Source: a virus. Taken from it: 64,000 nt of DNA. This document shows positions 2,143 through 63,429 of the stretch, one piece after another. Numbering within the stretch: position 1 is the first letter of the stretch; the number at the start of each line of letters is the position of its first letter. Under the pieces are notes generated by a model. That model ran no database searches and had not been told where the DNA came from. It saw nothing but the letters and a program-made list of their open reading frames with translations. Position numbers and translations under genes: made by a program. The DNA lies in the IMG/VR virus record IMGVR_UViG_2799112719_000001. One strand, written 5' to 3'.

Positions 2143-2173
2143 CCACCGTTCCCAGCCGTTATCGGCTGTGGTT
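2141..2173 (+). terminator. Hairpin after the RT gene
   Basis: AACCAC..CAGCCG TTAT CGGCTG..GTGGTT nested inverted repeat starting at the RT stop codon. Confidence 0.4.
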
Positions 2174-2219
2174 GGCATCGAGATAAGAAATATCGTATAA
2201 CCCCTTAAAATAAAAAACA

Positions 2220-4529: not shown

Positions 4530-4556
4530 TGCGCCTGTCCCCTATCCCCTCTCGTG

Positions 4557-4585
4557 CCCGCTGGTTTCCCCAGCGGGTTTATTTT
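4557..4585 (+). terminator. Intrinsic terminator (family-B hairpin)
   Basis: CCCGCTGG (4557-4564) pairs with CCAGCGGG (4570-4577), followed by TTTATTTT. Confidence 0.7.
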
Positions 4586-4625
4586 GTCCCTACCTTTCCC
4601 CCCGTTTCCCCTATCTTTGCTCAAA
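4578..4625 (+). promoter_or_regulatory. Late promoter copy 1
   Basis: TTTTGTCCCTACCTTTCC..CGTTTCCCCTATCTTTGC. The -7 box TATCTTTG lies at 4612-4619. The same roughly 45-nt block recurs at 15136 and 23031. Confidence 0.6.
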
Positions 4626-4636
4626 AATAAGATGCA

Positions 4637-11036: not shown

Positions 11037-11048
11037 ATTCATAAATCA

Positions 11049-11777: not shown

Positions 11778-11789
11778 CCCCATAAAGCA

Positions 11790-12473
11790 ATGAAACAAGA
11801 CCAATACTTCCGCGATTTCCAGAAGCTCTGCATCGACATCCTGGCTCAGTCTGATAACTGCCAGGAGTCGCAAGATCTTTTCCGTGCATCTCGCTCTGTT
11901 CCAGAACTGGTGACGGCATGGCAACGCTTCTGGGCCGGTGTGCTGCATGAGGTGCCCGAACAGGTCATTAAGGCTTTCGGTGCCCTCTATCCCGTCTATC
12001 GGGATGATATTCTTCGTGCCGGCTTCTATTACAACGAGGCACCGCCTATCGACGCGCCCGCCTCAATGGTTCTCATCGGCAATGCCCCTGTGCCCGAAGC
12101 ATCGGCTTCGGGTTCTGAAGCCCCCGTCCCCCTCACCATTGCTGGCCGTCATCGTGTCTATGTCCTGGGCGACCACACCATCACCTGCACCGACAACGCC
12201 AACGTCCACATCGTTGCCGACTCTGCCAACGTGACCCTAACAGGTAGTGCCCGTTGTAACATTGAACGTGGCACCGTTACAGCTCGTGACCGTTCCACCG
12301 TCTCAGGACGTGGCACCATCCATTGCTATGACTCCACCACCATCCTTGCATACGGTGGCATAGTGCATGACCATGGCCACCTCGATATTCGGGCCTACAA
12401 CGATGCCACCATCTACTCGTTTACCAACCGTCGCATTGAGTTTCACGATAATGCTAAACTGATTTATGAATAG
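11790..12473 (+). CDS. Hypothetical protein (227 aa) carrying an in-frame palindromic element
   Basis: ORF with a repetitive beta-strand-like C-terminal half. It contains PVPEASASGSEAPVP, encoded by the hairpin at 12090-12113. Confidence 0.65.
   Translation: MKQDQYFRDFQKLCIDILAQSDNCQESQDLFRASRSVPELVTAWQRFWAGVLHEVPEQVIKAFGALYPVYRDDILRAGFYYNEAPPIDAPASMVLIGNAPVPEASASGSEAPVPLTIAGRHRVYVLGDHTITCTDNANVHIVADSANVTLTGSARCNIERGTVTARDRSTVSGRGTIHCYDSTTILAYGGIVHDHGHLDIRAYNDATIYSFTNRRIEFHDNAKLIYE
12090..12113 (+). repeat. In-frame palindromic element, family A (VPEASASG)
   Basis: GTG CCCGAAGC ATCG GCTTCGGG T. Perfect 8-bp stem and 4-nt loop, inside ORF 11790..12473. Confidence 0.8.
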
Positions 12474-15105
12474 TCATATCGCCATTACAGCCCTCAAAAA
12501 CGGTCGCCAGCAGCCGCTGAATCTCGGCGACGATTTCAGCATCGACATCGACGATCAGAATCCGTTGTTTAACGACAACGAAATGTTTTCGTACCCATGT
12601 CGAATGCCTATGGAGGGCAACCGTTTCCTGCTGGGTAATATCGACGATCCTGCCAACATCGACCGTCCCGTTGGTTTGGAGCATACGAAGATGCGTATCG
12701 TAGTCGATAACCAGCCTTTCCGCTCCGGCACCCTCGTAACTGCCGAAGATGAAGAAATCGACACCGCTCTCACCATGAATATCACGGCCTCTGAGCACTC
12801 TATTGATGACCTCATAGGCGAACTGCAATGCCGTGATATTCCTCTGAAGGATCGTATTCTCATTGGTGAGAAAATCGGAGCTGTGAAGGCGCATATTGAC
12901 TATGATTTCCAAATCAAGATAACATATAGTGGTAAGAAACCTGATGAAATCCATTCCATCACTTCACAGCGTAGTAGTGATGCGGAGTTTTCGCCCCAGG
13001 CTCTCGGTTTCTCTTATCCTGGCCGTTGTGTCACTCAGTCAGGCACCAAGGAGAAAGCGGTAAAGAGTAAGGAAGAGAGTTATGGCGATGATAAGAAGGT
13101 AATCATTCCCCAGGTACAGACATCGTTTATCAATGTGAGCGATGCCTATCCGACGGCGAAATACTGTAATGCCCGTGTCTGCTATACACACTATGATATC
13201 GACGAAGACGGTAAGACAACCTCTAAGGCCAGTCCGAAGACAAAGCACACAGGACCTAACGACCACTGGCCGTATTGGGTGCTGGAGGCCGACCGTCCTC
13301 AGTCTGGCATCTGCTTCTATGTGCTTTACTTCCTCGACTGCCTTTTCTCGTTCCTGGGTGTCAGCTTTGACAACACCGAACTGCTGAAGGTGGAAGACAT
13401 GCGCCGCCTGTGCTTCTTTACGACACACTGCAAGTACGACGAGGAAAAGAAGTACCCTAACGTGGATGGTTATTTCCAAACGGTTAATGAGGTCAACGAA
13501 TGGCTGGAGAGTCGTGGCTGTGGTGGTAAGTTTGTAATCTCTGACGTAAAGGGCAAGCAGCTCGACGATTGCGAATACCATTATTACAATCCGTTCAACG
13601 GTCAAACGTATAATGGCCATGCTACTGTAGGTGTGGACGGTGTGCAGTCTATCACTGTTGAACCGACAAAGACGGGTGAGAGTCTGAAGGCTGATATCAT
13701 GCTGATGTATGCCAACAGCGATAACTTCCCTGACGAAGCTGTGAAGACGGTGCTGGATTCGCTCTGGGCATCGTTTGGCATCAAGTTTGAGTATAACTAC
13801 GAGAAGAAACATGTCCGTGCTTACTTTGCCCGTGATGTGTTCCGTGACCAGCAGGATCCTATCGACTTCCCAGGCCGCGTAATCTCCATGAAAAAGATTG
13901 CTGAGAAGATTACGGGTGTTAGCATGAAGTACAGCAGCGAGAGTGATGCAAAGGAACAGCGTAGTAACGTGAAACAGGGTAAGAAGGATTATGATACGTC
14001 CTATGACTATATCGACTATCCTCAGAAATCGACTGTCACTAACAAACACTACGAAGAGATTTTCCGTGCGCCCAAGCAGTCTGGTGGTGAACGCGATAAG
14101 ACGTGCTATATTGACCGTGCAACTGGAAACAAATACCGTATCAAGGTCAATGGCGAGGCAACCAGCTCATCCGACTGGAAACCGGCTCTCTTTGAGGTGG
14201 GTCAGTTCAAGGGTGTAGAGCTGGGCGATTGCTCTGAGTTAAATAAGGACTTCGTGGAGGAAATCGTCAGCGATTTTCAACCGATGGAGTTTAACGATGT
14301 CAACTATCAGACTGAGATCGCACAGGCCAGTGGTACGCATAATGATGGTAGCGGAAACACGGTATCATTGAATACCGACCGCATGGAGCCTATTCTGGCT
14401 GCATACATCGACGAAGACATGGAACATGAGTTCATCAAACAGATCATCAAGGAAAGCATCGGTTCTGACTTCGTGGAGTGCTATGCTGAAGAGCAGATGG
14501 AGTTGATAGAAAACTACGACCCCAGCGACACAGACGATGGCAACAGCCCGTTACAGTCTATTGATTGGGGCCTTGCTATCGCTATCATGCGTGGTGGTGG
14601 CACCAATGCGACCATTCAGACCTACGATTTCAATTACGATGGCTTTGGTAACTCAAAGTGGCGTACTGTCGCCGGCCTCTATGCCCTCACGTCTGACTCT
14701 ATCGACATGTGGGGTAATGAGTACGACTACAACGGTGTGCAGCCTGGTATCGGTGGTGGTGAACGCTTCTCACTCAAAATACGCTCATGGGTGCAGCCTG
14801 AATGGGCTGATGGCCCGCTCGTGGATCCTGATGTCATCAACGCACAGACGGGAGTCGTCGAGAAGAAAATTAAGTCGCGTGGACTCTTCGACACCTTTAT
14901 GTCGGAATACTGCAACTTCATCCTGAAACGTCGCAAGTACCGCATCCAGATAGAGTGCTCTGCCGCACAGGTGGCCGATGTGCCAAACCACTGGACGCGC
15001 CGCTTCCGTATCAATGGCCTGGTAGGATTCATCAATAAACTGTCCTACAACGTCTCAGCAAAAGACGGCTTGAACAGTCTTGAAGTAGAGTTTTACGTCT
15101 ATTAG
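12466..15105 (+). CDS. Large virion structural protein (879 aa), function unassigned
   Basis: Overlaps the previous stop by 8 nt. Its N-terminus, NSHIAITALKNG, shares the AITAL motif with the two fibre ORFs. Confidence 0.75.
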   Translation: MNSHIAITALKNGRQQPLNLGDDFSIDIDDQNPLFNDNEMFSYPCRMPMEGNRFLLGNIDDPANIDRPVGLEHTKMRIVVDNQPFRSGTLVTAEDEEIDTALTMNITASEHSIDDLIGELQCRDIPLKDRILIGEKIGAVKAHIDYDFQIKITYSGKKPDEIHSITSQRSSDAEFSPQALGFSYPGRCVTQSGTKEKAVKSKEESYGDDKKVIIPQVQTSFINVSDAYPTAKYCNARVCYTHYDIDEDGKTTSKASPKTKHTGPNDHWPYWVLEADRPQSGICFYVLYFLDCLFSFLGVSFDNTELLKVEDMRRLCFFTTHCKYDEEKKYPNVDGYFQTVNEVNEWLESRGCGGKFVISDVKGKQLDDCEYHYYNPFNGQTYNGHATVGVDGVQSITVEPTKTGESLKADIMLMYANSDNFPDEAVKTVLDSLWASFGIKFEYNYEKKHVRAYFARDVFRDQQDPIDFPGRVISMKKIAEKITGVSMKYSSESDAKEQRSNVKQGKKDYDTSYDYIDYPQKSTVTNKHYEEIFRAPKQSGGERDKTCYIDRATGNKYRIKVNGEATSSSDWKPALFEVGQFKGVELGDCSELNKDFVEEIVSDFQPMEFNDVNYQTEIAQASGTHNDGSGNTVSLNTDRMEPILAAYIDEDMEHEFIKQIIKESIGSDFVECYAEEQMELIENYDPSDTDDGNSPLQSIDWGLAIAIMRGGGTNATIQTYDFNYDGFGNSKWRTVAGLYALTSDSIDMWGNEYDYNGVQPGIGGGERFSLKIRSWVQPEWADGPLVDPDVINAQTGVVEKKIKSRGLFDTFMSEYCNFILKRRKYRIQIECSAAQVADVPNHWTRRFRINGLVGFINKLSYNVSAKDGLNSLEVEFYVY

Positions 15106-15113
15106 TCTTCGTG

Positions 15114-15140
15114 CCCGCTGGTTCGCCAGCGGGTTTTTCT
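15114..15140 (+). terminator. Intrinsic terminator (family-B hairpin)
   Basis: CCCGCTGG (15114-15121), loop TTCG, CCAGCGGG (15126-15133), then TTTTTCTTTT. Confidence 0.7.
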
Positions 15141-15182
15141 TTTGTCCCTACCTTTTTCCGTTCTATCGCTATCTTTGCCAAA
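15136..15182 (+). promoter_or_regulatory. Late promoter copy 2
   Basis: TTTTGTCCCTACCTTTTTCCGTTCTATCGCTATCTTTGC. The -7 box TATCTTTG lies at 15170-15177. Confidence 0.6.
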
Positions 15183-15199
15183 AATAAACGCTTATTATT

Positions 15200-17044
15200 A
15201 TGGCAAAGAAAAAAGACGCTTTCATCCAGACGGTCAAAGGACCAGAACAGTTGCGACACCGTGCAGAGCAGCTGCGCAAGATGGGTTATTCCATCCTTTT
15301 GCCCAGCGAAAACAACTATCTTAACATGGATGGTCCGCGTGAGTCGTGGAGTGACTTTATCGGCGCACAACTGCGCTCTGGTGCCTCTGAGAATGGACGC
15401 GCACAGCGTAAGTCCATCCCTACCCTCTACTTCAGTAGTGGTAATGAGGTGAAAACGGGCGTTTCCGACAAAGGTACAAAGGACTTGGGCTATATTGAGT
15501 GGGGATTGGGCAACACACTGCCTAACCTCGTGGCCTTGCTCACAAACATGTTGCCCTACACAGCTGCTGGTGTTGAGTTCAATCAGATGCTCGTGACGGG
15601 TCTCGGTCCCCAGCCGAAATTTGACGTGGCTCAATATGTGGGTGGTAACATCACCACCACGAAGATACGCTATAAGGATGCTGGCAAATGGCTCCGTGGC
15701 CGTATCATCGACCTCCAGCGTGAGCTGCTGAAACTCCACTCAGAGCATAATGCTACTACTCCCGCTGGCTCTTCGGCTGGTAATGAAGGTGTTAGTGTGC
15801 TCGGTGGTTCTGCCACCGAGGGTGGTGCTCCATCGGCTTCCGCTAACCAGGTGTTTGATAGCCTTTGTGAATCTATCAGTGAACAGATTGAGGATCTGCA
15901 AAAGGCCCTGAAGAAATGGAATGAGACATGGCCAAAGGTAAAGGATTTCCTGGAGCGTAACAACCTCGCTCAGACATGGCTTGCTGTGTCGCTCGATCAG
16001 GTGATGTTTAATATTTCATTCCCAGAATTGCAGTTGAACCAGCGACAACTCGATAAAAATAATAAGGATGTAGAGACGAAAGATTGGACTCCAGCCATTA
16101 CGGGATTGTCCTACCGTAGTTGCCATACAACCAGATTGGAGCGAATGGATCAATACGGGCGTATCAATTATGTGTACTGCTCGAATCGTTGGCTGGATAA
16201 GCCATGGCTCGATCAGGGAGGCGACCAGAACGCGCCCATCAATGCCATTCATGCCCTTAATCCGGCTTCACCGCTGACTTCGCTGCAAGAGGTGGTTTGG
16301 GAGGCAAAGGAAAAGAACGTATCGGTAAACAAACGTCCTACGCGCTTCGTGCTGCCTACGTTCAATCCTACTGCTGGCCGTCCGTATTATCCGACTCCTG
16401 CCTGGCATTCCATCTTTGGTGGCGATATCTACGAGTATCTTTCTACGATTATCAGTGACCGCTACAATCGTAAGAAGAATAGCAATATCATTGGCCGTAT
16501 CATCTACCTGCACAACGATTATATGCAGCAACTCTTCATTCAGAAGAAAGCACAGTCTGATAGAAAGAAGCAGGCAGAGATACGCGATAAACTCTATACG
16601 CAAATCAATCAGTGGCTATCCAACCGTGACAATGCCGGTCAGTCGCTCTTAGCCTTTACCTTCATGGGGACTGATGGCGAGGAACACAAGAGCTTCGAGA
16701 TAGTGGAGATTGAGAGTGCCAGCAAGTCTGTGGCTGATGCCAACGAGAAAGAGACGGCTGAGATCTCATCTATCGTCTTCATGGCTCTTGGACTGGATGC
16801 CCGCCTGCTTGGTTCGTCACCAATGGCTTTGGTTGGTAGCAGTGGCGGTACGGACATCCGTGAGCGTTATCTGTTGCGTCTCATCCTGAAGTCGCCCATC
16901 CAGAACGTCATGCTGAAGACGCTCGATGTGGTGTCGCATTTCAACGAATGGGACGAAAACCTCTGTTGGGAGATCGACCGCGAGGTGATGACTACGCTCG
17001 ACCGTTCTAAATCAGGTGTAACAACTCAGGACAAACCCGAATAA
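15200..17044 (+). CDS. Large structural protein (614 aa); a portal role is possible but unsupported by any motif
   Basis: First gene after late promoter copy 2. Only size and position are portal-like. It contains a PAGSSAG low-complexity loop. Confidence 0.7.
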   Translation: MAKKKDAFIQTVKGPEQLRHRAEQLRKMGYSILLPSENNYLNMDGPRESWSDFIGAQLRSGASENGRAQRKSIPTLYFSSGNEVKTGVSDKGTKDLGYIEWGLGNTLPNLVALLTNMLPYTAAGVEFNQMLVTGLGPQPKFDVAQYVGGNITTTKIRYKDAGKWLRGRIIDLQRELLKLHSEHNATTPAGSSAGNEGVSVLGGSATEGGAPSASANQVFDSLCESISEQIEDLQKALKKWNETWPKVKDFLERNNLAQTWLAVSLDQVMFNISFPELQLNQRQLDKNNKDVETKDWTPAITGLSYRSCHTTRLERMDQYGRINYVYCSNRWLDKPWLDQGGDQNAPINAIHALNPASPLTSLQEVVWEAKEKNVSVNKRPTRFVLPTFNPTAGRPYYPTPAWHSIFGGDIYEYLSTIISDRYNRKKNSNIIGRIIYLHNDYMQQLFIQKKAQSDRKKQAEIRDKLYTQINQWLSNRDNAGQSLLAFTFMGTDGEEHKSFEIVEIESASKSVADANEKETAEISSIVFMALGLDARLLGSSPMALVGSSGGTDIRERYLLRLILKSPIQNVMLKTLDVVSHFNEWDENLCWEIDREVMTTLDRSKSGVTTQDKPE

Positions 17045-17046
17045 CC

Positions 17047-18075
17047 ATGGCACAAGGATTACTCATACAAGGCGCATCACCGTTGGTTGGCTCTCCAATC
17101 ACGTTCAAGGTGCAGGCTGCCGTCATCAGTGGCGAGTGTGCTTTCCATCGTGTAAAGCTCACCGTACATGCCGGCATCTATGGTGGCAACTATACCGACC
17201 TGACGCTATCCTCACCTGCTGAGAGTGGCGAAAACCTGTACTTCGATGTTTCGTCTGCTCTCCGTGCCGTGGCTGATAGCTATGAGTACACTGCTACGCC
17301 TCCTGCTGCCTATCCCTATATCGTCTATGACCTGTCGGCCTGTGATGAGTATATGCAGAATGGTGAAGTGCATGATAATGTGGGTGTCGTGACCAGCAAC
17401 GGCCACAAAGCCATTTTTGGGGCCTACTCTGACCTGGAGCGCATCCTCAGTGGTGGCAGTAAACTGGCACAGCACTTTACCCGTAAGCCCAACACCACAC
17501 CCGAAGTGGTGGCCGTAGGCGAGACAATGGTATGCCCTCAGTCGTTTGCAACGGCTATCAGTGAGGGTAGTATCACTACGGGGCCTACGTCATCGGTGGT
17601 CAGTATTACAACGCCTGGCCTGCAAACCATCAATGGCCGTCAGGTGTATGCTGTGGCCGCCGGACAGACCGACCGCTACCAGTTCCGCTTTGTCAATGGT
17701 TTGGGCTGTCTCGAATCAATCAGTGTGCGCTCATTCAAGACCACTGAGACGAATGTAACGCAAGAGTCATACATTCGTGCCATACAAGAAACCTTTGGCT
17801 CGTTCTCGCGTGGCCTGGTGACAAAGAAAAACGACTATGAGACATGGAAGATGTCTTCTGGTCCTCTCGATGAAGCATGGCATTCGTGGTTTATCCATGA
17901 GTTCCTGATGGCTAAGTTCGCTTGGATTAAGATAGGAAACAACTGGCTCGGTTGCCATATCGTGCCGGAAGAGACCGTAGAGGGCATCGACCGTACTAAT
18001 GGATCTTTCTACGAAGTACAGTTCTCTGTCCGTCTCGACCTCAATGGCTCTCCCCTGGCTGCCCTCGCAATATAA
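17047..18075 (+). CDS. Hypothetical virion protein (342 aa)
   Basis: 2-nt gap to the upstream gene. No motif recognised. Confidence 0.7.
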   Translation: MAQGLLIQGASPLVGSPITFKVQAAVISGECAFHRVKLTVHAGIYGGNYTDLTLSSPAESGENLYFDVSSALRAVADSYEYTATPPAAYPYIVYDLSACDEYMQNGEVHDNVGVVTSNGHKAIFGAYSDLERILSGGSKLAQHFTRKPNTTPEVVAVGETMVCPQSFATAISEGSITTGPTSSVVSITTPGLQTINGRQVYAVAAGQTDRYQFRFVNGLGCLESISVRSFKTTETNVTQESYIRAIQETFGSFSRGLVTKKNDYETWKMSSGPLDEAWHSWFIHEFLMAKFAWIKIGNNWLGCHIVPEETVEGIDRTNGSFYEVQFSVRLDLNGSPLAALAI

Positions 18076-18103
18076 AACAATAATCAAACAAAATAATAAC
18101 GAT

Positions 18104-18640
18104 ATGAACCAGATTATCTCATTCTTTCAGAGCTTTTTCTGCTCTATCCCACGTCTCGTTGCAGTCGCCTTGGGAATTGTATGGGCATGGTTGGAACCAA
18201 CGCTCCCCTATGCCCTGTTGTGTGTGTTTGCTGTGTTAATAGACTGTCTGACTGCCTGGCGACTAAACCGACGCATCAAAGCCACATTCCCGAAAAGTAA
18301 AGCCGATGGTAAACTGAAATCGGCTCACATGTTCAAGATGGTTAGTGACCTGGCGATTGTCTGGTTCTGCATTCTGCTTGCTGAAGGTGTGGATAAGCAT
18401 TTGCTCGCCCACCTCGGAGGCTTACACCTCGGTCAGTATGTGGCTGCCATCTTCATCCTCTGTACCATGGTTAGCATCCTCGAAAACGAATCATCCTGTA
18501 ATGGTTCTGCATGGGCAAGAGCCGTCCAAAAGATTGTCACCTCTAAGGTTGCACGTCACATTGACATCGACGAAGAGGAACTGGAGGCTGCTATCAAACC
18601 TAACAAGGCTAAAAAGCACAAGAAAGCTGTCAAAGAATAA
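18104..18640 (+). CDS. Holin (phage_holin_4_1-like)
   Basis: ATG at 18104 (MNQIISFF). Three to four TM helices, the LIDCLTAW and VSILENESS motif pair characteristic of this holin family, and a charged Lys-rich C-terminus. Confidence 0.65.
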   Translation: MNQIISFFQSFFCSIPRLVAVALGIVWAWLEPTLPYALLCVFAVLIDCLTAWRLNRRIKATFPKSKADGKLKSAHMFKMVSDLAIVWFCILLAEGVDKHLLAHLGGLHLGQYVAAIFILCTMVSILENESSCNGSAWARAVQKIVTSKVARHIDIDEEELEAAIKPNKAKKHKKAVKE

Positions 18641-18650
18641 TGTCACCTAT

Positions 18651-18669
18651 GCCGTGATATCATCACGGC
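18651..18669 (+). terminator. Hairpin after the holin gene
   Basis: GCCGTGAT (18651-18658) pairs with ATCACGGC (18662-18669). The T-run after it is weak. Confidence 0.4.
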
Positions 18670-18686
18670 CTTAAAATTTGTTCGCT

Positions 18687-19754
18687 ATGCTTATCTCATC
18701 CCCCGAAGAACTGAGGCTTTATTCGCCCTCTAACGCCATCGACAACATCGAGACGATGGCAGGTTTTTTTGATTCGTCTGAGCAGGACTTCCTAAAGGAT
18801 AAACTCGGCGCACAGCTCCATCAGTCGTTGGTGGAATATTATCAGTCATTGCGCGATGGCGAGGGTGCTATTGCGGAGTATATCGGACAGATTGTAGCCG
18901 GTACTCCCCTACCCCCTTACGCCCGTCTGCTGACACTGGCACAGCGTATCATCACCTTTGATGCGCTCGGTCGTGCTATCGACCAGCAGGCTATCAGCGT
19001 CAATGGTGCAGGCATCAATATTGGTGTGGCCGATGACTACCAGAAAGTTGACCCCGCCACCATTGCGGCCTATAAGCAGAGCTGCATCAAGGAGTCTCAC
19101 GCTGCTATCAATGCCTTGCTCGTGACACTCGAAGAGTGGACGCAGGAGGTGAATGCGATCGACCCTGCCACCATTGAGCCAGAAAGCTCTAACGCTGAGA
19201 AAAAGGAGATTACCGATTATTGGCGTACCTCACGCTATTTCTTCCTCGCTGCAAGTCTGGCTATCCCGTCGGCTACCATCCTTCAGGAATATCTCGACAT
19301 CTACGGCTCGCGTGAGAAGTTTATCCTCATGCTGCCTGACCTGCGTTTTATCCAGGAGGATATTCTGACTCCTATCATCGGCGAGGATCTGATGGACTAT
19401 CTCGTTGAAACAGCAACCAAGGGCACTGATGACCGCCTTTTGAAGCGTATCATTCACCGTTTGCGTAAGGCTATGGCCCGTCACCTGGAATCGCGTACCA
19501 TGCAGATAAAAGTGGGAGACCCAAGACGTGAGACGGCACATAACGAGGCCGTGCAGTTGACTTCCGACCTCTCCAGCTACCTGCAAACGCATCAGCCCGA
19601 CATGGAAGGCGACCTGCTGGAAGCCTTTAAGACCTCTCCCCTCTATGTGGCTCCCGCCACTGAGCCTGAAGCATCGGCTTCTGGTGAATACACGCCGGAG
19701 TTTGAAAACAATGCCTCTGGCTCTGTCATGTTTGTAACCCCTGCCCTCGATTAG
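18687..19754 (+). CDS. Hypothetical virion protein (355 aa) with an in-frame palindromic element near the C-terminus
   Basis: First ATG at 18687 (the track start at 18678 is TTG). It contains EPEASASGE, encoded by 19665-19684. Confidence 0.7.
   Translation: MLISSPEELRLYSPSNAIDNIETMAGFFDSSEQDFLKDKLGAQLHQSLVEYYQSLRDGEGAIAEYIGQIVAGTPLPPYARLLTLAQRIITFDALGRAIDQQAISVNGAGINIGVADDYQKVDPATIAAYKQSCIKESHAAINALLVTLEEWTQEVNAIDPATIEPESSNAEKKEITDYWRTSRYFFLAASLAIPSATILQEYLDIYGSREKFILMLPDLRFIQEDILTPIIGEDLMDYLVETATKGTDDRLLKRIIHRLRKAMARHLESRTMQIKVGDPRRETAHNEAVQLTSDLSSYLQTHQPDMEGDLLEAFKTSPLYVAPATEPEASASGEYTPEFENNASGSVMFVTPALD
19665..19684 (+). repeat. In-frame palindromic element, family A (PEASASG)
   Basis: CCTGAAGC ATCG GCTTCTGG. 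8-bp stem with one T:T mismatch. Confidence 0.7.
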
Positions 19755-19756
19755 TT

Positions 19757-20410
19757 ATGACCAGCAATCTCTCTACTATCCTCGAAAAGTGGGCACAGTT
19801 ATACAAGCCCATATCGCATGACCCGAAACGTGGCTCTAAGGATAAGGCATACTACGAAATCAAGACCATCAATCAGGATTCGGAGTTTGTGCGTAATCAG
19901 AACACGGCAAAGTCGCCATGTATGGCCTATTCGGTCCTGGTAGATGCGGAAATGAACTCTACCAAGGTGGTGAACTATCGACACACCGTCTATTTTATGT
20001 CCCGTGCCAAAACGCGCTCGCTGGCTAAGAATGCCAAGCAGGATGATGAGCTGGGCACTGACCAGCAGCTGCTGATGGATGACATGGTGCAGGATCTCAT
20101 TCAGTATCTCCGTGATCTGAAACACTATGGCCGCTGTCCTATCACTGGCGAGACCTACGACACGCCTACGATGCTGTCGCTTCGTGGCCTCTCGCTCGAT
20201 AAATGCGAGTGGGGCAGTCTGCCTGTCAAGTATGCTGAATGGCATTTGATGGAGCTATCCATTGACCAGGACCAGCCACTCCCTGCCATCGGCTGTATCA
20301 ATAAGGAAAAGTATCACCTCCCTGTCTCTGAAGAAACCACTGTGCCCGATGGCTCTCCGTCGGGTGAAACTACCGTTCCTGAAGCACCTGCTTCGGGTGA
20401 TAACCCCTAA
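19757..20410 (+). CDS. Hypothetical protein (217 aa) with two palindromic elements in its C-terminal tail
   Basis: The tail reads TTVPDGSPSGETTVPEAPASGDNP*. Confidence 0.7.
   Translation: MTSNLSTILEKWAQLYKPISHDPKRGSKDKAYYEIKTINQDSEFVRNQNTAKSPCMAYSVLVDAEMNSTKVVNYRHTVYFMSRAKTRSLAKNAKQDDELGTDQQLLMDDMVQDLIQYLRDLKHYGRCPITGETYDTPTMLSLRGLSLDKCEWGSLPVKYAEWHLMELSIDQDQPLPAIGCINKEKYHLPVSEETTVPDGSPSGETTVPEAPASGDNP
20342..20365 (+). repeat. In-frame palindromic element, degenerate (VPDGSPSG)
   Basis: GTG CCCGA TGGCTCTCCG TCGGG T. 5-bp stem with the same GTGCCCG...CGGGT frame as the others. Confidence 0.55.
20375..20398 (+). repeat. In-frame palindromic element, family A (VPEAPASG)
   Basis: GTT CCTGAAGC ACCT GCTTCGGG T. 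8-bp stem with one G:T pair. Confidence 0.7.
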
Positions 20411-20426
20411 CTCATAAATATACAAT

Positions 20427-22967
20427 ATGACAGTCGCCCGTCCATCCGATTATTGGTTTTCATCCAGTGCTCTGTTTGTTCAACTCAATGCCGCTGGTGA
20501 TCGTAACTACATCCATGCTAACTGTTCGTCAGGTAGCATGGTGATGTGCTACATGCGTGGCATCGACGGGCTGGGATTTGATAATGGCCATAACTATCGC
20601 AGATGGACGCTGATAGCGTCGCCTACCGTCTTCCATGATGATGATCCCCGCTATGTCTATATCGCCATCCCAAAGAGCAATGCCGCCGACATTCCCGCAC
20701 AGGTGGTATGGCCGTCTGAAGAGTTGGATATCTACGGATGTAATGAGGGAGGTACACAGGTAGGTTCCACCGATTACTACTACATCTGGACGCGAGGCAT
20801 TATCTCAGCCTCTCGTGTGAATGGTGTGGCACAGGATCGTGTCTGGAGTCAGGTAGTAGATACTGGTACGCTGGCTTCTGATGAAGCGATTGCCAGTGGT
20901 GGTGAAGGCACCTGGTGGGAGTATATCGCTACTACCGACATGGTGAAGTTCCTGAAGACTATCAGTGAGGCTGTATTTGAGAAACTGACGGCATCCTGGG
21001 CCTCTATCACTCAGCTGGTACTTCACGGCCATACCATCAATGGCGTGGCTAATCCTGAGACGGTGGCCGATGCCAATGCCAACGACAAACTGGTGACTCC
21101 TGCTTACGCTAAGACGCAATATCTCTCGCGTACTCACGATGACACCGCAAATGGCGACATCACCTTCAATAACTCCATACTTGTTAAGGGTGAAACGGTG
21201 TTGAAACGCTCTGTCACCATTGGCGATTATGAGAAGGATATTCAGGTAGGCATCGGCTCGCGCACCGGCATGAAGATGCTGCCAGACGGCACCATTATTG
21301 CCCGCTCGTTGGAACTGTCGGAATCGCTGTCGGTACCAACCATCAAATACAACCAGATTGAGGTGCTTTCAGGCACCCGCTGGGACTCTGCCGGTAAGGG
21401 ACGTATCAAGGAGATTATCAGCACCGATGACACTAACCATACATGCCAGTTCGTGCTCGACCTGAACGATGGTGAACCAGGAGAGTTTATAGTGAATGAT
21501 ATCCTGCGTGGCTTCTGGCACAACATGGATGGTACTAAGAATGCCACTACCAACAGCGATGACCGTAAGGGTAATATCCAACGTGCAGGATTCCAGTCTA
21601 TCTACTGCCGCGTAACAGCCGTGGCCAACGTCGTTGAGCGTGTCACCAATGATGTTGTTGAGTATATCGCACAGGATGCGCAATATGTGGCACAGGAAGG
21701 TGATAAGATTCGTGAAAATGGCCTCGTAACGGTGGCCATGCGTCAGTTCAATACGAATCCTGTCACTTGGTCGCCCGCTCCTGAACAGTGGAGTGTGCTG
21801 TCTGTCTCTGGCTTCTTTGGTGTGGATCATCCAGAGCGTCAGAAGTTCTTTATCTATACTACGTCCTATATGGCCCGCTTCGAGGGTGTAAACACATGGG
21901 AATGGGAAGAGCATTGCTTCATGGGTGGCTGGGGTGACTTGACCGGCTTTGCCATGCTGCAACTGGACGAAAACCAACAGGTAGTATATCGTAAGGAGTT
22001 CAACGGCGAGGGCTTCGTCACCAAGGATGCGCATATCTATGGTGTGCTCGACCAGTTTACGCGATTCTCTGACCGTATCGACATCAAACTGTCACGTCCT
22101 GATGGCACCATTGCCGACGGCGAACAGCAACGCGCCGACTTCATCCTGAAGGATGTAGAGGGTAACGTCATTAGCAGTGGCTATACGATGAGCATTACCC
22201 GACAAAGCGGCAATGCGGCTGCTGATACGGCATGGAATCAGGCCATGGCTACACAATACCCCAGCGGCATCCCGTCGGCTCTCTATTTCCAGTTTGCTGA
22301 TGTGCCTGAAGGTGGTGCTGTCTATGTGGTGGCCGCCACACGTCAGGTAAGCGATGGGCAGGGTGGCTATGACACCTATACAACCAGCGCGTCGTTTGTC
22401 CTCTCCCGTGCCTATGCCCAGGAGATTTTCTTAGGAGCGTGGGATGCTGCAACGCTCTATGAGCGCACTCCCCGACTCTACCCCACCGTCACACATAACG
22501 GCTGCAAGTGGTATCTCTATGCTGCCAGTAGTCAGAATAACGAGCCACACCCCACATCGACCTACTGGAAGATGGTGTATGGTGTCAACGACCTTCAGAT
22601 ATGCTTCTACGACCGTGCAGGGCACCGCATCACATCAGCAGCGCAATATCCTGGTGCCGTTAATCTCTATCTCGACCCGCATTTGCTGTGTGGCAACTAT
22701 GACATCACCGACCAGCTGACAGATAGCGATTGGTCGTGGGAGCGTTACACCGGCAATTATGGTGAAGAGACCGACACCCGTAGTGCAGCCGATAAGCAGT
22801 CTGATCAGGGGTGGCCTAATGCCCACTGGCCTGCCATTCCTAAGACTCGTATCATCACGATTACCAACGATGACATGCCCCCGACATGGGGTAGCGGTTC
22901 CATCGTGAACTTTATCGTCACTGCCAGCTATGGATCCCTGACGATTGATAACGCGGTACAAATGTAA
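20427..22967 (+). CDS. Large virion structural protein (846 aa), function unassigned
   Basis: Long uninterrupted ORF in the late operon. No motif recognised. Confidence 0.75.
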   Translation: MTVARPSDYWFSSSALFVQLNAAGDRNYIHANCSSGSMVMCYMRGIDGLGFDNGHNYRRWTLIASPTVFHDDDPRYVYIAIPKSNAADIPAQVVWPSEELDIYGCNEGGTQVGSTDYYYIWTRGIISASRVNGVAQDRVWSQVVDTGTLASDEAIASGGEGTWWEYIATTDMVKFLKTISEAVFEKLTASWASITQLVLHGHTINGVANPETVADANANDKLVTPAYAKTQYLSRTHDDTANGDITFNNSILVKGETVLKRSVTIGDYEKDIQVGIGSRTGMKMLPDGTIIARSLELSESLSVPTIKYNQIEVLSGTRWDSAGKGRIKEIISTDDTNHTCQFVLDLNDGEPGEFIVNDILRGFWHNMDGTKNATTNSDDRKGNIQRAGFQSIYCRVTAVANVVERVTNDVVEYIAQDAQYVAQEGDKIRENGLVTVAMRQFNTNPVTWSPAPEQWSVLSVSGFFGVDHPERQKFFIYTTSYMARFEGVNTWEWEEHCFMGGWGDLTGFAMLQLDENQQVVYRKEFNGEGFVTKDAHIYGVLDQFTRFSDRIDIKLSRPDGTIADGEQQRADFILKDVEGNVISSGYTMSITRQSGNAAADTAWNQAMATQYPSGIPSALYFQFADVPEGGAVYVVAATRQVSDGQGGYDTYTTSASFVLSRAYAQEIFLGAWDAATLYERTPRLYPTVTHNGCKWYLYAASSQNNEPHPTSTYWKMVYGVNDLQICFYDRAGHRITSAAQYPGAVNLYLDPHLLCGNYDITDQLTDSDWSWERYTGNYGEETDTRSAADKQSDQGWPNAHWPAIPKTRIITITNDDMPPTWGSGSIVNFIVTASYGSLTIDNAVQM

Positions 22968-23005
22968 ATTTCGTGTTCATTACCCCCGCTGCAATTCAGC
23001 AGCAA

Positions 23006-23038
23006 AGCCGTGCTACGAGTTGGCATGGCTTTTTTTTG
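23006..23038 (+). terminator. Intrinsic terminator
   Basis: AGCCGTGC...GGCATGGCT imperfect stem followed by T8. Confidence 0.55.
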
Positions 23039-23076
23039 TCCCTACCTTTTCCCCCGTTTCCCCTATATTTGCAGTG
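23031..23076 (+). promoter_or_regulatory. Late promoter copy 3
   Basis: TTTTTTGTCCCTACCTTTTCCCCCGTTTCCCCTATATTTGC. The -7 box TATATTTG lies at 23064-23071. Confidence 0.6.
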
Positions 23077-23130
23077 ATAAAATTTGTTGTTTCATGCTGC
23101 TGTCACAGCGGCCCCTAAAAAATTAAGATT

Positions 23131-23748
23131 ATGACAAGCTCTATTCAAGAACCGTGCTGCATCGAGAACACCCTGCCTCGACTGCTTCGTGAACATGCTC
23201 TCGCCACCTGGCAGACCAATGGCGATGTAACCTTTGACAAGCTGATGAAGGCTGTCGGCTGTCTCGCTGGTGATGCTATCACCGTCATAGTCATCACACC
23301 CTCTATCGACATTGCACATCTGCGTTACCTCCGTTGGTTGCATCAGCGTGGATGGCTGAAGGAACTGAAAGTGCTGACGGCTACCGACCAGGCAGAGTTG
23401 GTAAAGAACGAGCTGCCTGCCGAATTGCCGATGACCATCAGTAACCACACCTCAGTAGTGGAGCCGTTGCTGATTATCACTGGAGAGAAGAAAACGGTGG
23501 TGGTACAGGGTGCCTTGCTCCCCATTGTCACACCTGGCCATTATCAGTATGTCACCTATTGCGGCAATGACCAGGAGCAAATCGACATGCTTACTGCCAG
23601 TGCCCTCTCTCTCCTGCGCACTGCTTCCCGTAAAAAGGATAAGAAGGGCAAGAAAGCCGAAGAAACACCATCTGCTGAAGCCCCCGTGCCCGAAGCATCC
23701 GCTTCGGGTGAAGCTACCGTTTCTGAAGGTGAAAAAACCGCTGAATAA
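23131..23748 (+). CDS. Hypothetical protein (205 aa) with an in-frame palindromic element in its C-terminal tail
   Basis: The tail reads SAEAPVPEASASGEATVSEGEKTAE*. Confidence 0.7.
   Translation: MTSSIQEPCCIENTLPRLLREHALATWQTNGDVTFDKLMKAVGCLAGDAITVIVITPSIDIAHLRYLRWLHQRGWLKELKVLTATDQAELVKNELPAELPMTISNHTSVVEPLLIITGEKKTVVVQGALLPIVTPGHYQYVTYCGNDQEQIDMLTASALSLLRTASRKKDKKGKKAEETPSAEAPVPEASASGEATVSEGEKTAE
23686..23709 (+). repeat. In-frame palindromic element, family A (VPEASASG)
   Basis: GTG CCCGAAGC ATCC GCTTCGGG T. Perfect 8-bp stem. The flanking GAAGCCCCCGT is also shared with the 12090 copy. Confidence 0.8.
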
Positions 23749-24293
23749 TGGCCGTCCAGATAGAAAAGCCCCGTCGCCCCATAAATGTGGTGCTCCGTTC
23801 CTTTGCCCGCCAGTCTGTGCAGGCAATGGAACAGGGCTTTCGTACTCAGCACGTCTGGCCTTATGAGATTTATCCTGGCTTTGCCAAGATAAACGCTATC
23901 CGTAAGGCTCGTGCCATGAGAGGTGGTAAGGATTGGTTTGCTACTGGTGAGGGTTTGAAGTCGTTTCAGTATGAAGTGATGTCTGCCGCACAGGGCAACG
24001 AGACCATCCGTATTGAGTTCAACCACTACCTGCGCTTCGTTGACATGGGTACTGCCGGCGGTAAGCCTATCGAGACGGTGGACCGTGCGCGTAAAGCTCA
24101 TTACAGCCGTCGCTATGTCACGATATGGAGCGCAAGGGATGGTGACACACATCGACCATTCTCTATAATGATGGAAGCCCGCCACCTTGAAGGGCGTATG
24201 CAACGCTATCTCGAAGACTATTACGGACGTGAGGTGAATGCTCAGATCTATCGTACATTTAGCGGCCTCGGTGCCATTGACTTGACCCTGTAG
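23748..24293 (+). CDS. Hypothetical protein (181 aa)
   Basis: TAATG stop/start overlap with the upstream gene. Confidence 0.7.
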   Translation: MAVQIEKPRRPINVVLRSFARQSVQAMEQGFRTQHVWPYEIYPGFAKINAIRKARAMRGGKDWFATGEGLKSFQYEVMSAAQGNETIRIEFNHYLRFVDMGTAGGKPIETVDRARKAHYSRRYVTIWSARDGDTHRPFSIMMEARHLEGRMQRYLEDYYGREVNAQIYRTFSGLGAIDLTL

Positions 24294-24297
24294 TGTG

Positions 24298-24318
24298 CCT
24301 GCTGGTTCTGCCAGCAGG
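24298..24318 (+). terminator. Family-B hairpin without a U-tract (attenuator or processing site?)
   Basis: CCTGCTGG (24298-24305) pairs with CCAGCAGG (24311-24318), immediately after the stop codon. Confidence 0.45.
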
Positions 24319-24348
24319 TACTCATAATAACCAAAAACAATAAGAGTA

Positions 24349-24918
24349 ATGAACATTTTTAAGAAATGGCGTGAATATCGCGCCGCCAAGAGAAAGAAAA
24401 AGGAACTGCGTCAAACCAGCCGAGTATTTGGTCACATTGAACAGTTGACAAAGAGCCACATGCTCATTTGGGAACTGAAAGACCGTCGCCTTTTTATTGC
24501 ACAGCCATTGGCCATGGTCATGCTGTCGCGTGGTGCTGAAGCATGGCGAAACTTCCTGAACAATGTCTATCTGTATCATGTCTTCTGCCTGCAACAGCAG
24601 CAGTGGGATCAGTATGTGCTCGACTTGCAGCGTAAGGCTGTGGCAGAGCGCGTGGCCAGTGGTATCAAGGTGAAGCCAGGCGAACTGGACCGTATTCGTC
24701 GTGCTGTGCGTGACGGCATCAATAAGGATGGTGTGGCACTGCCTCCCATCGAGGCGTTTGATTTCTATATCATTGCCGACAATGCCAGTGGCGACGCACA
24801 GGCTGAGATTACCTTCGTTGGTGAGTATAACCCCGAAACCCGATTGTTTGATATGGCATCCTGGGAGGAAGTGAAAGCTGCCGTTCAAGAGGCCAAAAAG
24901 AATACCGAAAAAGAGTAG
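24349..24918 (+). CDS. Hypothetical protein (189 aa)
   Basis: ORF directly upstream of the ACP gene. Confidence 0.7.
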   Translation: MNIFKKWREYRAAKRKKKELRQTSRVFGHIEQLTKSHMLIWELKDRRLFIAQPLAMVMLSRGAEAWRNFLNNVYLYHVFCLQQQQWDQYVLDLQRKAVAERVASGIKVKPGELDRIRRAVRDGINKDGVALPPIEAFDFYIIADNASGDAQAEITFVGEYNPETRLFDMASWEEVKAAVQEAKKNTEKE

Positions 24919-24923
24919 TGTCT

Positions 24924-25187
24924 ATGACTGAAAATGAATTATTCAATAGAATACTTGACGTGATGGAGGCTCGTTTCGACAACATGCCACCGCGTCATTC
25001 CGTCACTATCGACGATAACTTTGCCGAAGACCTGGACTTGGAATCGCTCGACCTCGTAGATCTGATTATGGGCGTAGAGACCGCCTTTGACATCAAACTC
25101 GACATGGCCGATGCAAAGAACACCAAGACCATTCGTGACCTGATAAACTTTATTCGTGAAGTAAAGCCGGAGTTATGCGCACAGTAA
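24924..25187 (+). CDS. acpP: Acyl carrier protein
   Basis: 87 aa from ATG 24924. DLDLESLDLVDLIMGVETAFDIKL matches the ACP DSL phosphopantetheine-serine helix-II motif. Confidence 0.8.
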   Translation: MTENELFNRILDVMEARFDNMPPRHSVTIDDNFAEDLDLESLDLVDLIMGVETAFDIKLDMADAKNTKTIRDLINFIREVKPELCAQ

Positions 25188-26410
25188 TCACAGGCATGGG
25201 CATCTGGTCGTGCATCGGCGAAGACGTGCATACGGTGGAACAGTCGTTGCGCACTCGTTGTGCCGGCATTGGCACCGACTACCGACGTACAGAATACGGC
25301 TACCAGTCGCCACTCACGGGTATTGTGCTCCGTCCTGACCTGAAGGCAGAGCATTTGAAACGTGCCCAGCGTACCTGCATGGGAGAGCCTGCCGAATATG
25401 CTTACATGGCGGTAAAGCAGACCCTCGCTCAGAGTGGCATCACCGACCTGCATCACTGTGGCCTGATAGTCAGCAATGACAGTACGGCTAATGCCCTGGC
25501 AGAGACAGAGGAAATCATGCAACTGCACCATGACAGCCGTCATTTGGGTGCAGGCATGGTGTTCCGTACATTGAACAGTACCGTGTCAATGTCGCTGGCT
25601 TCCATCTTTGGCATCGGTGGACTGACGCTGACCGTCTCTGCTGCCTGTGCCGGTGGTGGCCATGCCATCGGACTGGCTCACTCGCTCATCAAGAGTGGCA
25701 TCCTTGACTGCTGTATCGTTGTGGGTGCCCAGGAGGTAGGACTACATGCCTACACGTCCTTTGACGCACTCGGTGTATTCAGTCGCCGCACCGATGACCC
25801 AGCAGCGGCCTCACGCCCCTTTGACGTGTCACGCGATGGACTGGTGCCGTCGGGTGGTGCAGCAGCTGTCATCCTTGAAAGTGAAGCCCATTCCGCACAG
25901 GGCTGTCGCCGTCCGATGGCCAGCATCGACGGTTATGGCTTCAGTACGTCACCGAATATCATCAGTCCGTCGGCTGACAGCATTTTCCGCTCAATGACCA
26001 ACGCCCTGAAGGATGCGAATCTCACACCTGCCGACATCGACATGATAGCAGCTCATGCTACCGGCACCCGCGATGGTGACAATGCCGAAGCAGAAGCCAT
26101 CACCTCCCTCTCGCTCTTTGCGCCTGTGCCCGCTGGCACTCCTGCGGGTCCCTACGTCGTAAGTACCAAGTGCTACACAGGCCATGAGTGCTGGATGTCG
26201 GGTGTGTCACAGGTGGTTTATACGCTGATTCAGATGCAGGAGCGTTTCATTGCGCCTCACATCAATCTTACTCAGCCCGATAAGGCTGCTGAACAGTTAC
26301 GCATCCCCACTACCCTTGTAGATAACGTCACCATCCGTCATGCGCTCTGCAATGCCTTTGGCTTTGGTGGCACTAACGCATCACTAATATTGTCACTATG
26401 GAAAGAATAA
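25175..26410 (+). CDS. fabF: Beta-ketoacyl-ACP synthase, KAS I/II (FabF/FabB-like)
   Basis: VSAACAGGGHAIG (active-site Cys), AAHATGT (His), STKCYTGHECWMSG (Lys/His) and NAFGFGGTNASLIL. It overlaps the ACP gene by 13 nt. Confidence 0.85.
   Translation: MRTVITGMGIWSCIGEDVHTVEQSLRTRCAGIGTDYRRTEYGYQSPLTGIVLRPDLKAEHLKRAQRTCMGEPAEYAYMAVKQTLAQSGITDLHHCGLIVSNDSTANALAETEEIMQLHHDSRHLGAGMVFRTLNSTVSMSLASIFGIGGLTLTVSAACAGGGHAIGLAHSLIKSGILDCCIVVGAQEVGLHAYTSFDALGVFSRRTDDPAAASRPFDVSRDGLVPSGGAAAVILESEAHSAQGCRRPMASIDGYGFSTSPNIISPSADSIFRSMTNALKDANLTPADIDMIAAHATGTRDGDNAEAEAITSLSLFAPVPAGTPAGPYVVSTKCYTGHECWMSGVSQVVYTLIQMQERFIAPHINLTQPDKAAEQLRIPTTLVDNVTIRHALCNAFGFGGTNASLILSLWKE
26126..26149 (+). repeat. In-frame palindromic element, family B (VPAGTPAG), inside the KAS gene
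   Basis: GTG CCCGCTGG CACT CCTGCGGG T. 8-bp stem with one mismatch and the same arms as the terminators at 4557 and 15114. Confidence 0.7.
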
Positions 26411-58822: not shown

Positions 58823-58824
58823 AA

Positions 58825-62940: not shown

Positions 62941-63429
62941 ATGATTATCGAGAAATTAACACAACCAGGAGCGCATTTGAACTGCGACGATTTGACTCCT
63001 AATCAGAAGAAACTCCTTTGGGAGATAATGAAACGGCATGGTGCATCACAGGGATTCGCCTACGACCGCTTCTTTAAGGAGGGCTTTGCCCTTTGGGAGC
63101 TGAAAGGTATCGACACTATAAAACGTCAGTTCCTTTCTGACCGCTTTTCTGAACTCTTCCCAGACCAGACCACCATGCCTGAAGCATTGGCTTTGGGTGC
63201 CATTCTTGATACCGTAGTGGCCACGAATGGTGAGTTTTATCGTACCCTCGGACGTACCTTTGGTATGAAAAAGGTGTTTACCGATCTTATGGGGACGCTG
63301 GGCATGGGTAGTAACTCGGTCCTCAATAAGTTTTCCACTGACGATTGGAAAGACTATGAGCGTATCGGTGTGCAGGCTGTGATGCAGGAATTTGAAACGG
63401 AAGTAGCGACACTGGATAATGGCGACTAA
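62941..63429 (+). CDS. Hypothetical protein (162 aa from ATG 62941)
   Basis: The track start at 62905 is a TTG inside the -7 box. Confidence 0.6.
   Translation: MIIEKLTQPGAHLNCDDLTPNQKKLLWEIMKRHGASQGFAYDRFFKEGFALWELKGIDTIKRQFLSDRFSELFPDQTTMPEALALGAILDTVVATNGEFYRTLGRTFGMKKVFTDLMGTLGMGSNSVLNKFSTDDWKDYERIGVQAVMQEFETEVATLDNGD

Follow-up and report, generated by a model that had tools for sequence, protein, structure and literature searches.

How a single short palindrome can stand behind genes as a terminator-like hairpin and also lie inside genes, translated in frame, is the question raised by viral record IMGVR_UViG_2799112719_000001, analyzed here as a 64,000-nt stretch (the window, by which we mean the whole stretch). 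An initial annotation had listed nine such sites, in two families of stem arms, and all nine were present as written on direct inspection. We found that these hairpins belong to a family of very small elements that is dispersed through the window, its relatives, other rumen viral contigs and ordinary genes of rumen Prevotellaceae, that follows rules of strand, reading frame and distance from stop codons, that keeps its stem through compensatory changes, and that is present in some orthologs and absent from others. We consider it reasonably probable that this is a very small dispersed repeat, resembling repetitive extragenic palindromic (REP) sequences and Rickettsia palindromic elements (RPEs), whose intergenic copies are kept as gene-end hairpins and whose copies in open reading frames (ORFs) are decaying passengers.

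One hairpin family at gene ends and inside genes

Relatives of the phage were reached through homologs of ORF 18678-19754 and comprised close relatives (L001-L005 and L014-L019, 93-99% identical) and divergent ones (L006-L013, 55-70% protein identity). A hairpin scan of their contigs turned up many instances of this hairpin, conserved outside the stem as well, and so exposed an element of ~30-40 nt with a hairpin core: (TAA/TAG)-CCACCGTG-CCCnnnnG-TTCT-CnnnnGGG-T. Its layout consists of a 5' flank, (A/G)CCACCGTG, a stem opening with CCC, a TTCT loop, a stem closing with GGG, and a T. Intergenic and ORF copies were alike in flank, CCC...GGG stem ends and loop, and ORF copies shared the trailing T of non-coding copies as well, so the proposal that one hairpin family supplies both gene-end signals and in-frame inserts stood. 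The search pattern first offered for it, GTGCCYG-N16-CGGGT, had no match as written, its N16 differing from the real spacing.

A covariance model built from element copies (R1) had 11-12 matches in the window; six divergent relatives together contained 51, and a set of independent rumen viral contigs, 183 kb recovered by an exact-pattern scan, yielded 106. The model's E-values of 1e-6 to 1e-10 reflect the shared 5' flank and loop. Its window matches included copies that had been missed, at 2139-2178, 15749-15788 and 63166-63205; a hairpin of a second class, at 15800-15820, had been missed as well. Scored at gathering threshold, no Rfam covariance model matched the window, L008, L010, L012 or L013, and a tRNA scan found none.

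Stem sequences changed without loss of pairing. Both-sided changes occurred at six of the eight stem pairs, and interior positions showed four pair types each in the 34-copy training alignment. Since copies were selected for pairing, this alignment is informative for the diversity of pair types alone. Stems were also specific to a genome and common to its intergenic and ORF copies (CCCTCCGG/CCATCCGG in L012, CCCGAAGG/CCAGAAGG in L013, CCCGCTGG and CCCGAAGC in the window), which points to copying or conversion among sites. The arm family labeled A in the initial annotation had, as stated there, no intergenic copy in the window; one exists in rumen viral contig L059. The encoded peptides varied among relatives in complementary fashion (EA/AS, DG/PS, SG/PA, EV/TS and DD/SS, with swaps also noted as D/S, N/L, C/Q, V/T and A/A) while the palindrome was kept. 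A peptide held constant over non-palindromic DNA, which would have marked a mere linker, was thus not seen, and base pairing rather than peptide function explains the co-variation.

Rules of strand, frame and stop codon

All 63 model matches in the window and six relatives were oriented with the coding strand, and each of the 106 matches in other rumen viral contigs lay on the same strand as the remaining matches of its contig. Of the 63, 28 were within ORFs, as were ~28 of 87 from the other viral contigs. With one exception (27/28), the former were read in a single phase, [A/T]-T-V-P-x-x-S-x-x-G, where CCC is the proline codon; the translations given by the initial annotation were correct, and its ORF copies were all in this one frame. 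The consensus intergenic form has TAA in both other phases, one in the 5' flank and one in the 3' flank (TCCTAA).

Intergenic copies kept an equally strict distance from the preceding gene. Counted from the final base of the stop codon upstream, the stem began exactly 9 nt away in ~20 of the 35 such copies from the window and relatives, and in ~36 of 54 from the independent contigs. TAA or TAG stood directly 5' of CCACCGTG, and the next start codon was often 13-22 nt past the stem. A GC-rich hairpin with a T/U-run 3' of a gene, the anatomy of an intrinsic terminator, was found at 4557-4577 and 15114-15133 and at equivalent sites in relatives, and was not found at ORF copies, at 24298 or at many intergenic copies of the TCCTAAA type. 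The copies with T-runs were followed by TTTG...TAnnTTTG, ahead of the 2036-aa, portal and 205-aa genes. This is the promoter form of Bacteroides (-33 TTTG, -7 TAnnTTTG). A conserved motif, TTTTGTCCC(T/G)(A/C)CC ... TAtcTTTGC, followed terminator-type copies at 4578-4630, 15134-15195 and 23029-23075 in the window and in relatives, which supports a Bacteroidota host whose polymerase would transcribe the late genes.

Copies between genes in the window

All copies in the window lay on the + strand. The first (2139..2178; aTAA-CCACCGTT-CCCAGCCG TTAT CGGCTGTG; R1 36.8 bits) was directly 3' of the stop codon of a reverse transcriptase (RT) gene, and the equivalent copy in L008 also follows the RT gene (2151-2190). 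Two copies were, as had been claimed, of terminator type; they combined CCCGCTGG and CCAGCGGG arms with a T-run and ranked top in a scan for terminator-like sites. At 4545..4630 (loop TTTCC, R1 21 bits), a promoter of Bacteroidota type (TTTG ... TATCTTTG) came between the hairpin and the 2036-aa gene. At 15102..15195 (tTAG-TCTTCGTG-CCCGCTGG TTCG CCAGCGGG, R1 37.2 bits), the stem began 9 nt past the stop of ORF 12466-15105, a promoter of the same form (TTTG ... TATCTTTG) preceded the portal gene, and the copy was kept in all close relatives. The fourth hairpin (24287..24326; CCTGCTGG TTCTG CCAGCAGG; R1 10.8 bits) had no T-run, also as stated, and was situated 6 nt beyond the ORF 23748-24293 stop codon; its first pair was C-G, T.G or T-A across relatives.

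Copies inside genes in the window

The two copies described as perfect stems were confirmed to have 8-bp stems and 4-nt loops (CCCGAAGC/GCTTCGGG, exact spans 12093-12112 and 23689-23708), and those at 19665, 20345, 20378 and 26129 had seven Watson-Crick pairs each, some plus G.T. The copy at 12081..12120 (CCCGAAGC ATCG GCTTCGGG, APVPEASASG, R1 38.2 bits) was situated in an inter-domain linker of ORF 11790-12473, next to a partial second 5' flank, GAAGCCCCCGTCCCC; most close relatives carried a degenerate GTGTCCGAAGCATCAACTTCGGGT there. Alignment of orthologs in this 227-aa family revealed two linker sites (A and B) that were occupied differently in the window, L008, L010 and L012. The second perfect copy (23677..23716, loop ATCC, APVPEASASG, R1 38.6 bits) was 32 nt ahead of the stop of ORF 23131-23748, in a C-terminal tail of low complexity; this tail of the 205-aa protein was hypervariable among orthologs, with different hairpins in different relatives, and a synonymous TCG>TCT change broke pair 3 in eight of nine close relatives.

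A copy with seven of eight pairs (19653..19692, EPEASASG, R1 30.8 bits) occupied a variable linker that precedes a conserved YxPxFENN motif at the C-terminus of a DUF6712-family protein (18678-19754); at this site, its homologs had variants resembling the element (PDASPSG, PSGSSAG and PEASAG). Two tandem copies at 20333..20405 (R1 43.5 and 21.1 bits) encoded TTVPDGSPSG (CCCGATGG CTCT CCGTCGGG), with a P>S change at the 20342 copy among close relatives, and TTVPEAPASG (CCTGAAGC ACCT GCTTCGGG), with the stop codon 5 nt further on. Together they formed a lineage-specific 28-residue C-terminal extension of the 217-aa protein of ORF 19757-20410. Since orthologs in L006, L007 and L013 were 186-187 aa long and ended ahead of this tail, and L010 had tandem intergenic copies at 18349 and 18386, the tail looks like an ORF extended over a gene-end cassette.

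The beta-ketoacyl-ACP synthase (KAS, 25175-26410) contained a copy with seven of eight pairs (26117..26156, APVPAGTPAG, R1 30.4 bits) in the loop immediately before the conserved sTK..GH motif. The initial annotation had guessed at an insertion here, and the protein was indeed 8 residues longer than its orthologs in L006 and L007 (74% and 71% identical) and than solved FabB (4xox), in alignment with which the extra residues fell in the same loop; the predicted clean 24-nt indel held as a net difference of 24 nt, but its edges were fuzzy. In L013, KAS had ATVPGASPFG at the position of APVPAGTPAG. Presence in the window and absence from orthologs was seen likewise for the 217-aa tail and the 227-aa linker sites.

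A hypervariable loop (15749..15820, R1 18.4 bits) of the 614-aa portal protein (15200-17044) contained two hairpins, a class-1 copy that is degenerate (15749-15788, TTPAGSSAG) and one of class 2 that is perfect (15800-15820, CTCGGTGG TTCTG CCACCGAG, LGGSATE). It was replaced in close relatives and had different hairpins in L006, L013, L008 and L010. The last copy (63166..63205, TTMPEALALG, R1 20.1 bits, E ~1.5e-3), in ORF 62905-63429, is old and degenerate, with six Watson-Crick pairs and two G.T (CCTGAAGC ATTG GCTTTGGG, 5' flank ACCACCATG). The statement that most ORF copies were in C-terminal tails was half true (4/9), and the suggestion that tight gene packing forced hairpins into coding sequence could fit the tail copies only and not the internal insertions.

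Two further hairpin classes were observed. The second, CTCGnnGn-TTCnG-nCnnCGAG, was found between genes and also within them, read in frame as L-G-G-S-A-T-E in loops of portal and DUF6712-family proteins (window 15800-15820; L006 3244; L008 10847 and 13740; L010 109, 10517 and 10799), so the in-frame habit is not confined to one hairpin family. The third had an 8-bp stem, a 3-nt loop, 5' flank ATGTYYCGTAT and 3' flank CCTAAAAAG (window 148-166, 3393-3411, 11748-11766, 18651-18669 and inside 23075-23110; L008 9965, L010 9965 and L013 6474). It ended ~18 nt ahead of structural-gene start codons and resembles a conserved 5'-leader element, possibly a 5' stabilizer, a processing site or a translation signal.

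The same element in genes of rumen Prevotellaceae

An exact-pattern scan of one genome per prokaryotic species matched only rumen Prevotellaceae/Bacteroidaceae assemblies (15 stretches), and the unspecified stem bases were complementary in 15 of 15. Nearly all host copies were intragenic, in frame and in sense orientation, in ordinary bacterial genes: valyl-tRNA synthetase (ValRS; three copies), TrpD, TrpE, TrpF, a GltD-like oxidoreductase, GH2, GH43 and GH94-like enzymes, an OPT transporter, and an aminotransferase with six tandem copies. A single 30-mer, GCCACCGTGCCCGACGGTTCTCCGTCGGGT (ATVPDGSPSG), recurred without change in eight or more unrelated genes, which belonged to different species-level assemblies.

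TrpD provided the clearest comparison of filled and empty sites. Among 120 orthologs (84-100% identical), ~45 had an empty site, KVTT-NQ-YERIF, and the remainder a filled one, KVT-xGxQ-[AT]TVP[DG]GSPSG-YERIF, some with tandem expansions; one carried AVPEASASG, the window's own stem family. The filled allele was net 33 nt longer, its 3' edge coinciding with the end of the hairpin, and in alignment with a solved TrpD the insertion site was a loop. Alignment to solved FabB and TrpD thus puts the inserts in loops; presumably they would be translated and exposed at the protein surface. In-frame insertion with orthologs lacking the insert was therefore found for phage KAS, the 217-aa tail, the 227-aa linker and host TrpD. 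Separately, in a rumen Prevotella trp operon (L057) we observed a longer palindromic insert, DPTPAPPLEGRG ... AAAPLPSRGGVGGGVCN, of ~50-70 residues, in frame in TrpG, TrpC and TrpF and absent from L056, an RPE-like phenomenon on the host side.

The element is therefore not phage-specific but common to the phage and its probable host lineage, with the same 30-mer in the loop of a phage synthase and in host tRNA-synthetase and tryptophan-pathway genes. It also provides a host call for an uncultivated phage family, probably rumen Prevotellaceae, and the element might serve as a marker linking phages to hosts.

Evidence against a dispersed repeat, and other explanations

Several results weigh against the dispersed repeat that we favor. 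Scans with Pfam or PHROGs found no transposase, REP-associated tyrosine transposase (RAYT) or HUH enzyme among ~40 window ORFs, and no target-site duplication or clean boundary was resolved at the TrpD, KAS and L008/L010 sites. The indels were 21-33 nt long with edges that were fuzzy because the orthologs compared were only 70-90% identical. A peptide just as mild, PDGEPSGTVA, would result from the reverse-complement phase, so peptide tolerance alone fails to explain the strict sense orientation, for which an orientation-dependent step or constraint is needed. The excess of G.T (27) over A.C (3) among non-Watson-Crick stem cells is a suggestive hint that pairing matters in the sense RNA, though it is perhaps partly inflated, as R1 scores G.U above A.C. 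Finally, perfect GC-rich 8-bp hairpins in window coding sequence numbered three, not significantly more than the 1.3 ± 1.1 obtained by shuffling synonymous codons (26 window genes, 200 trials, at least three hairpins in 30), because six of the eight stem pairs of P-E-A-x-A-S-G are dictated by its amino acids; the two free pairs involve third codon positions only.

The window alone thus proves nothing, and proof comes from non-stem features and relatives. The non-random signal is carried by the shared flank and loop, the strand and frame bias, the adjacency to stop codons and a test ascertained by peptide, in which instances of [TA]VP..S..G were collected by motif alone from ORFs of at least 100 codons. 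At least seven of eight pairs formed in 35 of 57 instances (4-nt-loop register), compared with 13 on average and 23 at most when partners were shuffled 1000 times, and most remaining instances were 5-nt-loop hairpins. The two free third-position pairs were Watson-Crick in 44 and 40 of the 57 instances.

Among other explanations, the hairpins within ORFs could have been selected in place as RNA structures (ribosome pause sites at domain boundaries, internal attenuators, or nuclease barriers that would make parts of the late polycistronic RNA differ in stability) rather than arriving as dispersed insertions. Strictly sense orientation and the preference for G.T over A.C would be expected of such structures, several copies lay between domains or just ahead of stop codons, and relatives only 55-70% identical had a copy at about the same linker in the 227-aa family and the DUF6712 protein, with different stems. 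We nevertheless think selection in place unlikely. Stems within ORFs were broken by synonymous and several amino-acid changes in relatives 93-99% identical, the occupied sites varied between close relatives, and a common regulatory role is implausible for an element found in loops of unrelated host enzymes. Copies in ORFs were also markedly weaker than intergenic ones, with perfect stems in 6 of 28 (mean ΔG -9.9 kcal/mol) compared with 19 of 35 (mean -13.7 kcal/mol). A function inside ORFs such as the attenuation suggested by the initial annotation is not supported, because these hairpins were not conserved among the 93-99% identical relatives, and intergenic copies were the better kept.

It is also improbable that the hairpins are primarily recombination joints, at which microhomology or template switching shuffled genes and domains, as reportedly proposed for the promoter stem-loop cassettes of T4-type phages, and left ORF copies as scars. 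Gene order was heavily shuffled between relatives with the same genes, the two-copy tail was at a rearranged junction, some copies lay between domains, and tandem partial duplications occurred at window 12114-12130, in host TrpE and in an aminotransferase. Yet inserts in the middle of loops of single-domain enzymes (KAS, TrpD and ValRS) are no domain joins, and no breakpoint mapped directly onto a hairpin. Recombination at the hairpins is compatible with a dispersed repeat and may be a consequence or side effect of it. As observations on gene order, the arrangement of structural genes differed between the window and L006-L013, a module shuffling unusually frequent for structural genes; the DUF6712 and 846-aa genes, for example, were adjacent in L006 and L008, and the 217-aa gene was situated between them in the window.

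Very improbable is the idea that ORF copies are plain low-complexity linkers (P/E/A/S/G/T-rich) with a palindrome arising as a GC-rich by-product of codon pairings (CCN/GGN, GCN/GCN and GAR/TCN) and unrelated to terminators: the six of eight amino-acid-fixed pairs of PEA-x-ASG, the three or more perfect hairpins in 15% of shuffles and the location of every copy in a variable, low-complexity segment would suit it, but it is largely refuted, and essentially excluded, by the CCACCGTG flank, TTCT loop and trailing T shared with non-coding copies, by peptide differences between relatives that are exactly complementary, by the Watson-Crick third-position pairs and by identical 30-mers in unrelated housekeeping genes of different species. 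The peptides were also considered as Bacteroidota O-glycosylation sites and rejected by inspection, as the sequon D-[ST]-[AILVMT] was absent and the insert also occurred in cytoplasmic host enzymes.

A model for the spread and fate of copies

From the patterns above we infer mobility as such, an RNA-level role for intergenic copies and selection behind the frame bias. New copies of the dispersed repeat would arise by copying or insertion, copies within one genome would be homogenized, and the fate of each would be set by its reading phase. A copy landing in the phase of its own 5' TAA/TAG would end the upstream gene and create a gene-end module made of a stop codon, an 8-nt spacer and a stable hairpin. 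The spacer would leave the hairpin just beyond the terminating ribosome and hence still folded, where it could terminate transcription or hinder nucleases attacking the RNA from its 3' end. Where a T-run is present, the module may be an intrinsic terminator before a host-type promoter; where it is absent, it would most likely provide a sense-RNA 3' end or a processing barrier between cistrons.

In the single open and benign phase, a copy would lengthen a loop, linker or C-terminal tail by ~8-11 residues that are small or flexible ([A/T]TVPxxSxxG). Selection would then retain three outcomes, namely copies in their own-stop phase, benign-phase copies in tolerant loops and tails, and ORFs extending over gene-end copies, with the copies in ORFs being tolerated passengers undergoing decay and not working signals. 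In this way a non-coding regulatory hairpin could become a source of new linkers, loops and C-terminal tails, and the reverse could also occur. More tentatively, we can imagine a so far undescribed class of ultra-small (~30 nt, 10 codons), strictly sense-oriented element that actively copies itself, by a step linked to transcription or RNA, into rumen Prevotellaceae chromosomes and their phages alike, seeding loops, linkers, tails and gene-end signals. The combination of strict sense orientation and exact stop-codon adjacency presents a testable mechanistic puzzle, and in practice such inserts can mislead gene callers, the inference of domain boundaries and repeat-based linking of phages to hosts.

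Other features of the phage genome

A 16-kb region of the window had no megablast match among phages deposited in GenBank, and the 614-aa protein was a distant portal homolog whose only match was the portal of Polaribacter phage Leef_1. In the region of 796-2142 and 2220-4529, the RT (PHROG RT, 3e-68) was conserved in the same place in L008 and L010, adjoining a DUF4376 protein. No template/variable repeat pair of a diversity-generating retroelement was found in 1-12000, and the idea that the hairpin is a target-site cruciform of such an element was dropped, as copies follow most genes. An acyl carrier protein (ACP) and the FabB/FabF-like ketoacyl synthase (24918-26410; E 1e-57 to a solved KAS I) formed a pair conserved across divergent relatives, which is unusual as an auxiliary pair for a phage. 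The 2036-aa protein had internal repeats of ~720-750 nt (6155-8364), which form a repeated domain array with four copies of a conserved 47-nt segment, plus others.

A ParA-type ATPase (42650-43513), a weak Rep3-like initiator (44328-45797), a large polyvalent protein (LPD1/LPD5; 30917-34375) and a HicA-domain protein (57155-58867) suggest a plasmid-like (phage-plasmid) lifestyle, in which a prolonged stay in the host would bring the genome into contact with the host's repeat elements.

Comparison with known repeat elements

A literature search for the peptide motifs and for in-frame palindromes of Prevotella found no description of the element. To our knowledge, RPEs are essentially the sole textbook case of palindromes inserted in frame. 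Other small hairpins offer partial parallels. The very small dispersed repeats (SDRs) of cyanobacteria, reportedly described by Elhai et al. in 2008, and the mitochondrial "byp" GC-hairpin inserts, reportedly described by Lang et al. in 2014, are said to be hairpin inserts of ~20-55 nt that spread within genomes and land in coding sequence, as our element does; byps, however, are said to be skipped by the ribosome, whereas our element is open in frame and presumably translated, and SDRs are not known as phage-shared or gene-end modules. The promoter-early stem-loop (PeSL) cassettes of T4-type phages, reportedly described by Arbiol et al. in 2010, are likewise said to be repeated intergenic stem-loop cassettes at gene boundaries in phages with shuffled gene order, but to include an early promoter, to be non-coding and not to be shared with host genes.

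[quoted passage not shown] SPRITE of pneumococcus is a mobile terminator-like repeat (cited in PMC10969869). Our element resembles both as a small non-autonomous repeat, either like a rho-independent terminator or common to phage and host genomes. It differs from MITEs in lying below their size range, in being a single hairpin without separate terminal repeats and, as far as its fuzzy boundaries show, without a target-site duplication, and in being frequently coding.

REP sequences and REPINs lie outside genes and are tagged with GTAG or CGTC, the former tag being linked to RAYT transposases (PMC3733652, PMC3116915). Our element shares with them a length of 20-40 nt, a GC-rich imperfect palindrome, a conserved short end tag, many copies, evolution within genomes and proposed roles in termination and mRNA stabilization (PMC3733652, PMC3116915). 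In contrast, it has about half of its copies inside ORFs, has the flank (A/G)CCACCGTG in place of GTAG or CGTC, and was accompanied by no RAYT among the ~40 window ORFs scanned.

The closest parallel, and the one already drawn by the initial annotation, is with RPEs, and it proved apt given the same element in frame in housekeeping genes of rumen Prevotellaceae. RPEs are palindromic repeats of ~100-150 bp that occur in Rickettsia only, both between genes and in frame in conserved genes (Ogata et al. 2000 and 2002, summarized in PMC10969869). The two have in common that they are dispersed, multi-copy palindromes present both between genes and in frame in unrelated conserved genes, where they add a conserved peptide at sites that the fold can accommodate (PMC10969869). 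Our element is three to four times smaller (~30-40 nt), has a single 8-bp hairpin of unrelated sequence, occurs in Bacteroidota and the phages that infect them, keeps strictly to the sense orientation, and also serves as a gene-end or terminator module adjacent to stop codons. It behaves like an RPE without being a member of that family, and would constitute a second, independent case of in-frame palindromes, far smaller, in another phylum and crossing the boundary between virus and host.

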